32,432 bases of DNA, from assembly GCF_003334255.1 (NCBI RefSeq), contig NZ_QOWU01000058.1, one strand, 5' to 3'. This DNA is from Escherichia coli. Its GTDB lineage: Bacteria; Pseudomonadota; Gammaproteobacteria; Enterobacterales; Enterobacteriaceae. Shown piece by piece: positions 2,314-5,759 of the stretch. Under the pieces are notes generated by a model, which saw only the letters and a program-made list of their open reading frames with translations, made no database searches and was not told where the DNA came from. Both the position numbers and the translations under genes were made by a program. Numbering within the stretch: position 1 is the first letter of the stretch; each line of letters begins with the position of its first letter.

Positions 2314-3513
2314 TGCCGGTTGCTTCCGGAAGGTGTGACAAAATACGGAAATGATGATGCTCCCGGCCCCGCATGCTCACCTGCAGAGCGTGTTCGTCGT
2401 CATCATACTGAGCCATGACGGGCGTCTTAAGGGCATCCTGTCATTGCTGAGCAGGCAACACCACCAGAGGAGCCACGGACAGGGATGTTCTTTACAGCCC
2501 GATGCACGCCAGGTTCTCAGCAGACTGAATGTGCAGGTGCGGTTATTCACCAGAAATGGCATGCTGCGGTACATACCCATCCTGGTGACAATATGTACGT
2601 GGCGACAGCGATCCCGGCACTGTGGAAGAGACTCACTCAGCCTGCAGGATATTCTTTCCGGCATCCGGGAATGTCCGCCTGAATGCAAACAGGATGATAT
2701 TTGAATCCGTAATACTGTTCTTTCATCATAAATAATTTATGCAGATACAGTTAACCGTAACAGTAGCAGGTTTGTTTTCCCGGGAAATAATATCCGTCAG
2801 ACTGATGCCGGAACATATCTGAAACACGTTATGATGTTTTGTTATCAGAAATGTTGTATATTCTTATCCGTGGCGACAGTTTAATGCCCTCTGGTATCAC
2901 CTGATAATGCATATCCTGCGATGATTCGTTATATTTACGGGACACGCCTCTTTTCATTGTGCTCCTTTTCAGACTTCATTTTCCGTAAGTGTTCCCCGGC
3001 ATAAAGGAGGTACCTTTCTGGCGTTTATAACTCTCTTTATCGGTGACGCCGGTAATACAGGGAATACCACACCGACAAACGAGGTATTAACAGACGATAT
3101 TTCAGTGTCCATAATTTTTCTGTCCGGTTAAATAACGTCAGTCTGCTGCCCTCTGACTGTAATCATCAAAGCCGGAATGCATACCGGGTTACAACGTAAA
3201 AAAAGTGATGCTGGCCCCCGGTGCAGCTGGCGGGCGAAACATGTTTACCTTTCAATACCCCCTGTCTGCAGTCTCCACTCTTCCATCCTCTTAAGCTACG
3301 TCGGCCACATGAGTGCACTTCCATGATAACAGGTATTCCTGTCAGCATAACGAAGCCGGTTACCTTCCCTTCCTCCTGCATTTCCTGTCAGAATGACTGT
3401 ACAGCGCGCAGATTGCCTTTTTATTGACCACCTTAATATACCATTATAAACTTCTTTTTATCATGTTATTATCACCTTATTATGTTTAATTTTTAAGCAA
3501 CCGGAGAAAGAGG

Positions 3514-4431
3514 ATGGTTCAGAAAATTTTGTCGGATAAGGTTATGAATGAAAGAACAAATGCGTATTACTCTTATTATCTTGGAGAGCGTAATATCTCC
3601 GTACTACCCCTTAATGTTTATGATCCCCCGGAACGTTTTATCGCTTACATAAAAAAAAACAGAGAAAATCTGAACATCACACTTTCAGATTTTGAACTTG
3701 AACAAATAATTTCTGGTATGCGTCTGAAGGCCCTGGCCTTCCTGGTCCCCCTGGAAAAAATATCCTGGATCGCGGGCAGTGAACGCGCATGCTTATTTTC
3801 CTGGTATCTGTTGATGCAGTTTATCCAGAATAACAGGGCAAAAATAAGCGCAGACTTGCTTCAAAAGAATAAACTGTATCTTAAAGAAGAGTATCTGGAA
3901 GGGAATGCCTTCCCGTCGGACTCATCGACACAGTTCAGACAAATACTCAGAGTTCTCGATATTCTTTCTGATAAGAATTTGCGGGATGAGTGGATAATCC
4001 AGACCAAAGACAGATGGATGCGGGCATTTAAATCAAAGAGTCCTTTCAGTTACCTCCTCCCGGAGAACGAACATGAATGCATATGGACATGGAATTATTT
4101 GAAGGGAAAAAATATTGCACTGGAAAAACTGGCCAGTTTTCCTGGTTCTGCTGATATTTACCACGCAATTCACCTTTCATTTGACATATGGGTTACCTGT
4201 CCACTCACCTCACCTGACGATATAAAAAATTTCAGAAACAGTTTCAATAAGGCCAAGGCGCAGCGCAAGTACAAAAAAATGCAGGAAGATAAAGTCAATG
4301 TACAGTTTTTTCTTGACGCAGAAACCAGGGCGCAGCTCAAAGAATTATCGAGGGTCAGAAGACTCAGTACCGGCGAAATGCTGCATGACCTGATTGTTGA
4401 AGAGTATAAAAGGTACCGACATTCCAGATAA
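3514..4431 (+). CDS. Orphan hypothetical protein (305 aa) with a C-terminal ribbon-helix-helix-like segment
   Basis: Clean 918-nt ORF in a visibly AT-rich segment, with AGAGG Shine-Dalgarno just upstream of the ATG at 3514. The C-terminus VQFFLDAETRAQLKELSRVRRLSTGEMLHDLIVEEYKRY has the strand/helix/turn/helix pattern of RHH (CopG/Arc-like) DNA-binding domains. The N-terminal ~260 aa are unrecognised and contain no P-loop. Confidence 0.65.
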   Translation: MVQKILSDKVMNERTNAYYSYYLGERNISVLPLNVYDPPERFIAYIKKNRENLNITLSDFELEQIISGMRLKALAFLVPLEKISWIAGSERACLFSWYLLMQFIQNNRAKISADLLQKNKLYLKEEYLEGNAFPSDSSTQFRQILRVLDILSDKNLRDEWIIQTKDRWMRAFKSKSPFSYLLPENEHECIWTWNYLKGKNIALEKLASFPGSADIYHAIHLSFDIWVTCPLTSPDDIKNFRNSFNKAKAQRKYKKMQEDKVNVQFFLDAETRAQLKELSRVRRLSTGEMLHDLIVEEYKRYRHSR

Positions 4432-4457
4432 TTTCAGACATATATTATCTCCGTGAG

Positions 4458-4499
4458 TCCCCCACCACCTTTCCGGTGTGCGGGGGTTTTGTCTTTTTT
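4458..4499 (+). terminator. Candidate rho-independent terminator (GC-rich dyad followed by a T-tract)
   Basis: gtcccccaccacctttccggtgtgcggggg followed by ttttgtctttttt, immediately downstream of the 3514-4431 ORF. The stem is imperfect. Confidence 0.4.
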
Positions 4500-4515
4500 C
4501 ACCGGGAATACATGT

Positions 4516-5388
4516 ATGAATCCGTCTGATGCCATTGAGGCAATTGAAAAACCGCTCTCCTCCCTGCCTTACTCACTTTCCCGTCACATCCTGGAACATC
4601 TGCGCAAACTCACCAGTCACGAACCCGTGATTGGCATTATGGGTAAAAGCGGGGCCGGTAAATCCTCACTCTGTAATGCACTGTTTCAGGGGGAGGTCAC
4701 CCCGGTCAGTGATGTTCACGCCGGCACCCGGGAAGTGCGGCGCTTCCGTCTGAGTGGCCACGGTCACAGCATGATTATCACTGACCTGCCCGGGGTGGGC
4801 GAGAGCCGGGACAGGGATGCAGAGTATGAAGCCCTGTACCGTGACATTCTGCCTGAACTTGACCTGGTACTGTGGCTGATTAAAGCCGATGACCGTGCCC
4901 TGTCTGTGGATGAGTATTTCTGGCGACACATCCTGCACCGGGGACATCAGCAGGTGCTGTTTGTGGTGACGCAGGCCGACAAAACGGAGCCCTGCCATGA
5001 ATGGGATATGGCCGGCATTCAGCCTTCTCCCGCACAGGCACAGAACATTCGTGAGAAAACAGATGCGGTATTCCGGCTGTTCCGGCCCGTACATCCGGTT
5101 GTGGCCGTATCGGCCCGCACCGGCTGGGAACTGGATACGCTGGTCAGTGCGCTCATGACAGCGCTTCCCGACCATGCCGCCAGTCCCCTGATGACCCGCC
5201 TGCAGGACGAGCTGCGCACGGAATCTGTCCGCGCTCAGGCCCGTGAACAGTTTACCGGTGCGGTGGACCGGATATTTGACACGGCGGAGAGCGTCTGTGT
5301 TGCCTCTGTTGCCCGTACGGTTCTGCGTGCCGTCCGTGACACGGTGGTCTCTGTTGCCCGCGCTGTATGGAACTGGATTTTCTTCTGA
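4516..5388 (+). CDS. yeeP: YeeP/YfjP/YkfA-family putative GTP-binding protein (50S ribosome-binding GTPase-like)
   Basis: Walker A GKSGAGKSS, DLPGVG (G3) and TQADK (G4-like) motifs. Sits immediately upstream of the Ag43 gene as in CP4-44. Start chosen at the internal ATG 4516; the GTG at 4453 is an alternative. Symbol is by synteny and family; yfjP and ykfA are paralogs. Confidence 0.8.
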   Translation: MNPSDAIEAIEKPLSSLPYSLSRHILEHLRKLTSHEPVIGIMGKSGAGKSSLCNALFQGEVTPVSDVHAGTREVRRFRLSGHGHSMIITDLPGVGESRDRDAEYEALYRDILPELDLVLWLIKADDRALSVDEYFWRHILHRGHQQVLFVVTQADKTEPCHEWDMAGIQPSPAQAQNIREKTDAVFRLFRPVHPVVAVSARTGWELDTLVSALMTALPDHAASPLMTRLQDELRTESVRAQAREQFTGAVDRIFDTAESVCVASVARTVLRAVRDTVVSVARAVWNWIFF

Positions 5389-5499
5389 ACAGTCTGCCAG
5401 GGAAATGCCTGATAACATTACGTTAATCAACTGAAAACATGACACAAACCCCTCATACTCCTCCTGTTTCTCTTGCGTGACCGCCTTGTCATTAATAGA

Positions 5500-5545
5500 A
5501 TAAAACGATCGATAAAACAGGTATCAATCGTTGCTATCGATCGTT
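5500..5545. promoter_or_regulatory. Ag43 upstream regulatory segment with Dam GATC sites (candidate OxyR/Dam phase-variation switch)
   Basis: GATC at 5507-5510 and 5539-5542 within aacGATCgataaaacaggtatcaatcgttgctatcGATCgtttat, ~220-250 bp upstream of the Ag43 start. The OxyR/Dam switch of agn43 is established knowledge; that this exact segment is the operator is inference. Confidence 0.45.
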
Positions 5546-5759
5546 TATAGTGGTTAATGGTCTGCGAAAAGGCAGCTGAATCTCTTCATCATGCAGAACG
5601 GAATTGCACACAACGGACTGATACTTCTCTGGCGGATGAGAGAGGGGAAGCATTTATGTCCGGGAAAAACCACTTTATCTGACCATGCTGTTTTGTACCT
5701 GCCGGTATCCACTTTTGTGGGTACCGGCTTTTTTATTCACCCTCTGTAAGGAAAAGCTG

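Follow-up and report, generated by a model that had tools for sequence, protein, structure and literature searches.

This locus raises the question of how a GTPase gene carried on an integrative island of Escherichia coli is maintained and expressed, and to which of two neighbouring genes the terminator-like element between them belongs. The stretch of DNA analysed, hereafter the window, comprises 32,432 nucleotides (nt) of contig NZ_QOWU01000058.1 (NCBI RefSeq assembly GCF_003334255.1). The gene under study, located at 4516..5388 on the + strand, encodes a GTPase of the YfjP/YkfA/YeeP family and is preceded on the same strand by an orphan open reading frame (ORF; 3514..4431). An earlier note, made from the letters of this DNA, had described the gene as an open relative of K-12 yeeP which might be functional, and had proposed that a GC-rich dyad in the spacer either separates both genes transcriptionally or links them by attenuated read-through. 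The explanation that we consider probable is that the GTPase gene is intact and selectively maintained, and that it has its own promoter and leader terminator, both contained in a cassette at 4422-4515.

Integrity and conservation of the GTPase gene

The GTPase ORF runs from the ATG at 4516 to the TGA at 5386-5388 of the + strand, and its 290 codons contain no internal stop, in agreement with the approximately 290 open codons reported in the earlier note. The same gene is found at the same coordinates in E. coli S88, its product being WP_001352614.1 ('GTPase family protein'); the S88 sequence is nearly identical to that of the window throughout 3400-5600. Pfam comparison of the protein gave MMR_HSR1 (E = 3.8e-14) and weaker matches to RsgA, FeoB, Dynamin_N and IIGP, those with IIGP and Dynamin_N being marginal (E = 0.006-0.02). 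The Walker A and DLPG motifs, which had been pointed out as intact, were read directly on the + strand: the G1 or P-loop motif is GKSGAGKS (residues 43-50, 4642..4665), conforming to GxxxxGK[ST], and the G3 motif, of DxxG type, is DLPG (residues 90-93, 4783..4794). In an alignment of 37 family members from Enterobacterales, residues G43, K44, G46, G48, K49 and S50 of G1, the G2 threonine T71, and D90, L91, P92 and G93 of G3 were invariant, and the window GTPase possesses all 60 residues that do not vary in the family. The G4 motif is a variant, TQAD (residues 152-155, 4969..4980, + strand), of the canonical [NT]KxD. It forms part of a family-wide T/S-Q-x-D-K signature (residues 152-156, 4969-4983) in which Q153, D155 and K156 are invariant, so that the specificity Asp is retained and Lys is replaced by Gln in every member. 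Judging from the motif, this replacement may alter the nucleotide preference of the GTPase.

Alignment with K-12 yeeP, yfjP and ykfA, the check that the earlier note had proposed for intactness, revealed neither frameshift nor truncation: the 290-aa protein is collinear from end to end with YfjP and YkfA (287 aa), with 51% identity. All of the seven E. coli and E. albertii alleles compared were open, and their pairwise ratios of nonsynonymous to synonymous substitution rates (dN/dS) were 0.07-0.2. The gene is therefore under purifying selection, and its product is probably functional.

The gene is already known and is annotated in most E. coli genomes. Its RefSeq name is 'GTPase family protein', borne also by thousands of cluster members in the protein database, and a 2.2-kb query matched 4,542-4,546 of the 5,426 complete E. 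coli genomes, the median genome having two matching places. In 60 of these genomes, sampled evenly down the match ranking, the best match spanned the whole coding sequence (51 genomes) or showed a 5' truncation of the K-12 type (five). As intact copies are present in most E. coli genomes, the intact gene is the normal state and K-12 yeeP the exception. The proposal that the island may carry a functional copy is thus upheld as to probable function, given the dN/dS values, but not as something noteworthy, since E. coli genomes generally carry an intact one. Neither phages nor plasmids are the home of the gene: none of 50,697 phage records contained it, and the plasmid records with a match (70 out of 72,556) include several of chromosome size.

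In K-12, the annotation of yeeP (b1999, CP4-44) is indeed that of a pseudogene. At the DNA level it is homologous to the window no further 5' than ~4838 (~codon 108), and its residual 141 residues are 97% identical to those of the window GTPase. By this comparison, K-12 yeeP is a 5'-truncated remnant of the window gene: at the orthologous locus approximately the first 108 codons, including G1-G3, are missing, whereas the window copy is full-length. K-12 has two intact GTPase paralogues, YfjP and YkfA.

The conserved segment upstream of the GTPase gene

The gap after the orphan ORF, previously estimated at ~85 bp, measures 84 bp (stop codon at 4429-4431, ATG at 4516). A segment of ~95 bp (4422-4515) accompanies the GTPase gene in ~80 Enterobacterales species irrespective of what lies upstream. 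The 80 loci were obtained from a scan of species-representative genomes (Escherichia, Citrobacter, Klebsiella, Enterobacter, Salmonella, Yersinia, Serratia, Photorhabdus, Erwinia, Dickeya and others), and a layout of box, hairpin and T-tract was present upstream of the GTPase gene in nearly all of them. In E. coli genomes without the orphan, homology begins at positions 1011-1031 of the query, equivalent to window 4410-4430, that is, at the end of the orphan ORF. Likewise, eight aligned E. coli contexts showed near-identity from CATTCCAAATAATTTCAGA on and unrelated sequence upstream. The upstream regions of K-12 yfjP and ykfA contain the TTCAGAnAnATATCAT box, a hairpin of differing sequence, a T-tract, ~25 nt with a Shine-Dalgarno sequence and the ATG. 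The conservation of promoter box, hairpin and T-tract upstream of the GTPase gene across contexts makes a promoter of its own most likely. In addition, the 400 bp upstream fell into 49 unrelated clusters in 74 loci, and the nearest long upstream ORF was on the opposite strand in ~27 of them, an arrangement confirmed in annotated example loci; the promoter must therefore lie inside the conserved cassette.

An information profile was made from 77 distinct leaders anchored on the hexamer TATYAT. Information content was approximately zero further upstream and rose sharply 22 nt before the hexamer. This onset and the E. coli context alignment mark, on the + strand of the window, a -35-like hexamer TTCCAG (4422..4427), located over the final codons of the orphan; this hexamer is TTnnAA in the family consensus and TTGAAA in the K-12 paralogues. 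It is followed by a promoter spacer of 15 nt (4428..4442, + strand) holding the box ATAATTTCAGACATA, of which TTTCAGA is conserved in more than 90%, and by the -10 hexamer TATTAT (4443..4448, + strand), TATYAT being invariant at five of its six positions in the 77 leaders. The predicted transcription start, T(-1) G(+1) A A, is located at 4454..4457 of the same strand, with G4455 as +1 and a 5' untranslated region (5'UTR) of 61 nt. A G stands 7 nt past the -10 hexamer in 77 of 77 leaders, and the almost invariant T-G-A-A at this distance fits a pyrimidine(-1)/purine(+1) start. Genomic SELEX (systematic evolution of ligands by exponential enrichment) with the RpoD holoenzyme yielded TTGAAA-15-TATCAT sites for ykfA and yfjP, the latter under the operon name yfjPQ (PMC3946193), and the window TATTAT corresponds to the TATCAT of these SELEX-defined promoters. 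Furthermore, K-12 RNA sequencing (RNA-seq) placed the beginning of the ykfA transcript units 80-84 nt upstream of the ATG under four conditions, the hairpin being included (PMC3734233), which is near the predicted ykfA start at -68 from the ATG.

The leader hairpin CCCCCACCACC-TTTCC-GGTGTGCGGGGG (4459..4486, + strand; dG ~ -16.4 kcal/mol when folded alone) is followed by the T-tract TTTTGTCTTTTTT (4487..4499, + strand), which would give a U-tail and contains 11 T in 13 nt. A terminator scan flagged 4459-4499, a GC-rich stem-loop with U-tract on the transcribed strand, which bears out the dyad and T-tract that had been described at 4458-4499. The whole-spacer fold had a z of -2.0 against shuffles; on a single sequence the dyad is therefore suggestive but short of compelling, and the strong argument is comparative. 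Under the requirement of one GC-rich hairpin with 5 or more T in the next 8 nt, 76 of 81 leaders qualified, with 69 distinct hairpin sequences, and in all relatives the stem ended at a constant distance from the ATG, about -26 to -30 and always within 22-30 nt. In the YfjP/YkfA clade (36 sequences), standard pairs made up 91% of the cells of the 12-bp stem, and changes on both sides were seen in 10 of its 12 pairs. This covariation was reached in 0 of 500 column shuffles, and sliding the partner strand by 1-3 columns left 30-52% paired. In the YeeP clade, to which the window belongs, the hairpin was kept in 39 of 40 leaders, the inner stems occurring in at least nine complementary versions that include AUCC/GGAU, UUCC/GGAA, AGCC/GGCU, CUCC/GGAG and CACC/GGUG. 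The use of MAFFT and RNAalifold on this latter clade returned almost no consensus structure, and a hand-set structure could not be kept in register on stems with bulges and indels; it was replaced by folding each sequence separately and by the formal pair count on the cleanly aligned YfjP clade.

All these results indicate that the dyad is most likely part of a promoter-leader-terminator cassette of the GTPase gene and not a 3' feature of the orphan, so both genes are most likely separate transcription units. Of the two arrangements considered in the earlier note, the separate one is hence preferred, with the correction that the dyad does not belong to the orphan but is conserved with the GTPase gene. 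Simple co-regulation, which the same note would have given up in the presence of a clear independent promoter, is disfavoured, as the conserved cassette most likely provides such a promoter.

The cassette would operate as follows. A sigma-70 promoter (-35 TTCCAG, 15-nt spacer, -10 TATTAT) would start transcription at ~4455, the hairpin would form between +5 and +32, and a fraction of the polymerases would terminate at ~+38 to +45, the remaining ones yielding an mRNA with the 61-nt 5'UTR. The leader terminator would halt transcription arriving from the variable upstream cargo slot, which here holds the orphan, and would in this way insulate the conserved backbone of the island. It would also attenuate the transcripts of the GTPase gene itself, leading to low or conditional expression, and in relatives the adjacent DUF932 gene would likewise be expressed at a low level or conditionally. 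Since the orphan ends within the cassette, with no further terminator after its stop codon, the GTPase hairpin would end orphan transcripts as well. An alternative RNA antiterminator would not fit into so short a leader; thus regulated read-through would have to be protein-mediated.

Several data weigh against this explanation. The -35 hexamer TTCCAG and the 15-nt spacer of the window are weak for sigma-70, and a sigma-70 consensus scan did not call the GTPase promoter, which is due to the spacer range of that scan (16-18 nt, as against 15 nt in the cassette). The hairpin allele of the window carries one bulge and one mismatch and is weaker than the E. coli consensus. In the K-12 RNA-seq data, the yfjP unit has its boundary past the hairpin, 0-8 nt before the ATG, and ykfA is merged with perR in lysogeny broth and two other conditions (PMC3734233). 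These data, which are of low resolution, suggest that the terminator is leaky, and the K-12 units fit a leaky leader terminator without settling the matter. In addition, no terminator-relieving factor was identified, and one persister-resuscitation screen (bioRxiv 10.1101/2021.04.10.439273) recorded no notable phenotype for a K-12 yfjP deletion. The Term-seq and SMRT-Cappable-seq supplementary data had no entry for K-12 yfjP, ykfA or yeeP.

We also considered whether the hairpin and U-tract might serve as a 5'-terminal stabiliser, or be the body of a ~40-50 nt Hfq-type leader RNA acting in trans. In the window clade only ~4 nt separate the predicted +1 from the hairpin, a position shared with 5' stabilising hairpins such as that of the ompA 5'UTR. 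As regards an Hfq-type RNA, Hfq usually binds a GC hairpin that ends in a U-tail (background in PMC9765468), and leaders of the YfjP clade have a conserved single-stranded 5' segment of 13-15 nt (GAACATACC...) before the hairpin. However, the distance between start and hairpin is unlike in the two clades (~4 nt and ~13-15 nt), which leaves a would-be seed of ~4 nt in the window clade, and the strict conservation of the T-tract together with its fixed position fits termination best. Rfam gave nothing at gathering score for the leaders of the window and 13 related loci, its E-value mode returning chance-level matches only, and no such RNA or RIL-seq-style name was found in the literature. We thus hold either role to be quite improbable.

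The box in the 15-nt spacer is possibly a protein-binding site, and its degree of conservation makes it a candidate for one. The window has a single copy of the box TTYAGAYAKATATYAT; in the other loci compared it was found only before GTPase genes or their remnants, further copies being those before K-12 ypjI and before the second GTPase paralogue of a Kosakonia locus. This restricted occurrence ruled out the box as a regulon motif. As a separate observation, the K-12 CP4-57 pseudogene ypjI (locus L003, 20455-20580) has a second promoter-hairpin-T-tract cassette in front, and its first ~20 codons (MSNSEGW*SF*QTLSGLPQW) correspond to a YkfA-like GTPase N-terminus broken by stop codons; ypjI is thus the remnant of a further GTPase copy.

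A more elaborate use of the box would be a switch of the Q/AlpA type, in which an island- or host-encoded factor would bind the -35/-10 spacer and load on RNA polymerase, which would then pass the leader terminator and later ones, so that the whole backbone is activated. The anatomy of the cassette is like that of lambda PR'-tR' (PMC7969949) and Pseudomonas aeruginosa PalpB-tB (PMC9371919), on which Q and AlpA act: a constitutive sigma-70 promoter has a conserved element in its -35/-10 interval and is followed by an intrinsic terminator ahead of the first gene of a long block. The conservation of the spacer (TTTCAGA in more than 90%) is far beyond the needs of a plain promoter, and the shortness of the leader, which excludes an RNA-based antiterminator, is also in line with such a switch. 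Moreover, GAACAT at +1 to +6 of the YfjP clade matches the -10 consensus at A2, A5 and T6, as does the PalpB pause element CACGAT. However, +1 to +6 of the window is GAGTCC, which is not -10-like; with a pause element that is absent or doubtful and a terminator only a few nt after the predicted start, the likeness to the lambda and PalpB systems does not go beyond layout. Neither a Q-like protein nor one similar to P. aeruginosa AlpA was found, and confinement of the box to the GTPase promoter leaves no regulon for the factor. The AlpA of the island is a 68-aa PF05930 protein without detectable similarity to the eight-helix Pseudomonas antiterminator (residues to at least 142). As a homologue of the latter it was rejected, because a phmmer search against PDB led to 8c3t and TorI and not to P. 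aeruginosa AlpA, with which it shares only the name. Taken together, these data make a switch of this kind doubtful.

Between the T-tract and the ATG, the ribosome-binding region (4500..4515, + strand), with a Shine-Dalgarno-like GGGA at 4504-4507, is partly complementary to the promoter box. The duplex test of both elements gave E = -14.7 kcal/mol in the window (p = 0.01); across the family the mean z was -2.0 and p was <= 0.05 in 45 of 81 leaders, the registers differing between subclades. Such pairing would matter solely for transcripts begun upstream of the cassette. The window leader (4432-4515) can also be read as a long imperfect palindrome, ATTTCAGACATATATTATCTCCGTGAG with TTCACCGGGAATACATGTATGAAT around the hairpin, which spans the -10 and the start codon, and in other subclades the complementarity of box and ribosome-binding region is achieved by other registers, for example TCAGACAGA with TCTGTCTGA. 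The cassette of Enterobacter mori (locus L090, 5020-5130) is a hybrid: a YeeP-type box and -10 TATTAT are followed by a YfjP-type leader with a CCGAACATACC...ACGGCAGAACC hairpin and by a 287-aa GTPase of the YfjP type. This composition suggests recombination between island variants within the conserved box.

The orphan ORF and the island surroundings

The orphan ORF (3514..4431, + strand) is AT-rich, encodes 305 aa and lies outside the conserved cassette apart from its end, the TAA stop codon (4429-4431) being inside it. Its last codons and stop overlap the GTPase -35 region in the window as well as in Serratia and Edwardsiella. The protein had no hit in Pfam, NCBIfam, PADLOC, PHROGs or PDB and no fold match, and its AlphaFold2 model is all-alpha. 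By eye, its C-terminus (VNVQFFLD...LSTGEMLHDLIVEEY) may be a ribbon-helix-helix motif. Homologues formed 28 clusters, all from Enterobacterales, and the orphan is present in 1,350 E. coli genomes; in E. coli ATCC 11775 the match to the orphan query (3450-4431) was 100%. Pairs of orphan and GTPase with the cassette between them were found in Salmonella, Serratia, Enterobacter, Edwardsiella and a divergent E. coli type, at 48-78% identity and in both clades.

These pairs bear on the possibility that the dyad is the orphan's own terminator and that the GTPase is expressed mainly by attenuated read-through, the two genes forming an operon or a functional pair. Both genes have the same orientation and are separated by 84 bp with no other terminator between them; they are adjacent in 1,299 of the 1,350 orphan-carrying E. 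coli genomes. Furthermore, the orphan homologues with readable context stood directly upstream of a YfjP-family GTPase in 8 of 8 cases checked (48-100% identity, both clades). The dependence is one-sided, however, as most GTPase loci have no orphan: it occurs in ~29% of the GTPase-bearing E. coli genomes and in 1 of the 80 species loci, and the GTPase gene keeps the hairpin and promoter box both in the presence and in the absence of the orphan. Many GTPase loci have a divergent upstream neighbour, and even in distant pairs the cassette lies between orphan and GTPase, sometimes with ~105 nt of extra spacer. The GC content breaks sharply at the cassette, jumping from ~0.40 to ~0.60 (orphan 0.36-0.43, GTPase 0.56-0.62). 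For these reasons we find it unlikely that the dyad is the terminator of the orphan. The one-sidedness may reflect a functional link or plain inheritance within one insertion slot, and a functional partnership of orphan and GTPase, although conceivable, is not what we would expect.

The GTPase gene heads the conserved backbone of integrative islands of the CP4-44/CP4-57 type, whose order is GTPase, antigen 43 (Ag43) or other cargo, DUF932, antirestriction, RadC, DUF987 and CbeA/CbtA. Downstream of the GTPase gene, an Rfam IS102 RNA (RF00124, 63 bits) lies at 5505-5741 upstream of the Ag43 gene, where K-12 has the small RNA IsrC (yeeP-flu). Just before the Ag43 coding region, a strong terminator-like hairpin at 5701-5728 (12 bp, 8 of them GC) is followed by TTTTTT; Ag43 therefore also seems to have a terminator-ended leader. 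GATC-rich repeats are present at ~5490-5560 and resemble the known OxyR/Dam phase-variation region. At the other side, an AlpA-family gene (PF05930) and an ORF at 1696-2313 (together 1410-2313) are on the GTPase strand in the window and in S88. The same pair is found in most loci of other species (L011, L014, L019-L022 and others) 1.5-3 kb upstream on the opposite strand, so the AlpA module is inverted relative to those loci.

The YfjP-family GTPases lead the backbone of very common enterobacterial integrative islands (CP4-6, CP4-44, CP4-57 and relatives), and the literature offered nothing that explains the expression of a backbone of the CP4-6/CP4-44/CP4-57 type. The cassette is a well-supported and apparently uncatalogued case of a familiar regulatory layout. 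With a sigma-70 promoter supported by SELEX and a covarying terminator in ~95 bp, it gives a testable handle on how the backbone is switched. The local picture is also corrected: the boundary between the variable cargo slot and the conserved module falls exactly at the -35 of the GTPase promoter. A bolder version would make the cassette the single control point of the 10-20 kb backbone, by means of a putative factor that binds the spacer box and renders polymerase resistant to terminators; if true, GTPase, DUF932, antirestriction, RadC and CbeA/CbtA would be switched on together, for instance at excision or transfer. We regard this version as speculative and hardly probable, and the same applies to the related proposal that the orphan is a dedicated partner or regulator of the GTPase.

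Predicted fold of the GTPase and comparison with known proteins

Comparison with NCBIfam gave scores for Era, MnmE, Der and EngB that were all far under the curated cut-offs (51 bits for Era, against 237). The protein is therefore a TRAFAC GTPase and no housekeeping orthologue. An AlphaFold2 model built from the 37-sequence alignment (predicted local distance difference test score of 87.5, predicted TM-score of 0.86, low confidence in the switch I region) shows a G domain, N-terminal helices and a long C-terminal helical hairpin. The top Foldseek matches in PDB were Irga6/IIGP1 and Irgb6, followed by Toc34, Era and GIMAP7 (E ~1e-7, TM 0.5-0.58). According to the model, this is a small GTPase of the TRAFAC type: the G domain is like that of Era/EngB, and the helices on its N- and C-terminal sides recall immunity-related GTPases (IRGs) and dynamin-like proteins, to which the predicted likeness is one of fold only and not of family membership. 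The protein might dimerise in a GTP-dependent manner or have a role at membranes.

The fold also bears on the idea that orphan and GTPase constitute a dynamin-like anti-phage defence of the Eleos/LeoABC type. PADLOC matched the GTPase weakly with LeoBC (E = 2.9e-8) and LeoA (3.5e-4), and elsewhere the slot upstream of the GTPase gene holds abpAB and rnlAB (CP4-57) or, in another strain, a type I restriction-modification system. Nevertheless, the match is limited to the G-domain residues 10-126 on a LeoBC profile of 601 positions, stalk and paddle are lacking in the 290-aa GTPase, partner genes of the LeoA or LeoBC kind are absent and the orphan had no PADLOC hit. The GTPase gene, absent from the phage records, is moreover a gene of the conserved backbone and not variable cargo. 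A defence system of this type is consequently very improbable, and the explanation that we prefer is a selectively kept backbone GTPase with, most likely, its own promoter and leader terminator.

No paper was found in the literature that assigns a function to YfjP, YkfA or YeeP, yeeP appearing mainly as a neutral integration site. With the ribosome-associated Era, EngB and EngA the window GTPase shares MMR_HSR1, but it has no KH or other RNA-binding domain, its G4 is TQxD instead of NKxD, it possesses extra N- and C-terminal helices and it is encoded on a mobile island. Compared with the IRGs (Irga6/IIGP1, Irgb6) and the bacterial dynamin-like proteins LeoA and BDLP, it is much smaller (290 aa versus ~400-700 aa), lacks stalk, paddle and membrane-insertion domain, and shows 14-20% identity. 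Finally, the closest known counterparts are K-12 YfjP (b2632, CP4-57) and YkfA (b0253, CP4-6), with which it shares 51% identity, the G motifs, the C-terminal helices, the place at the head of a GTPase-DUF932 backbone and a leader composed of promoter, hairpin and T-tract. The window clade differs from them in its shorter leader, with the hairpin right after the start, and in the presence of Ag43 between the GTPase and DUF932 genes.

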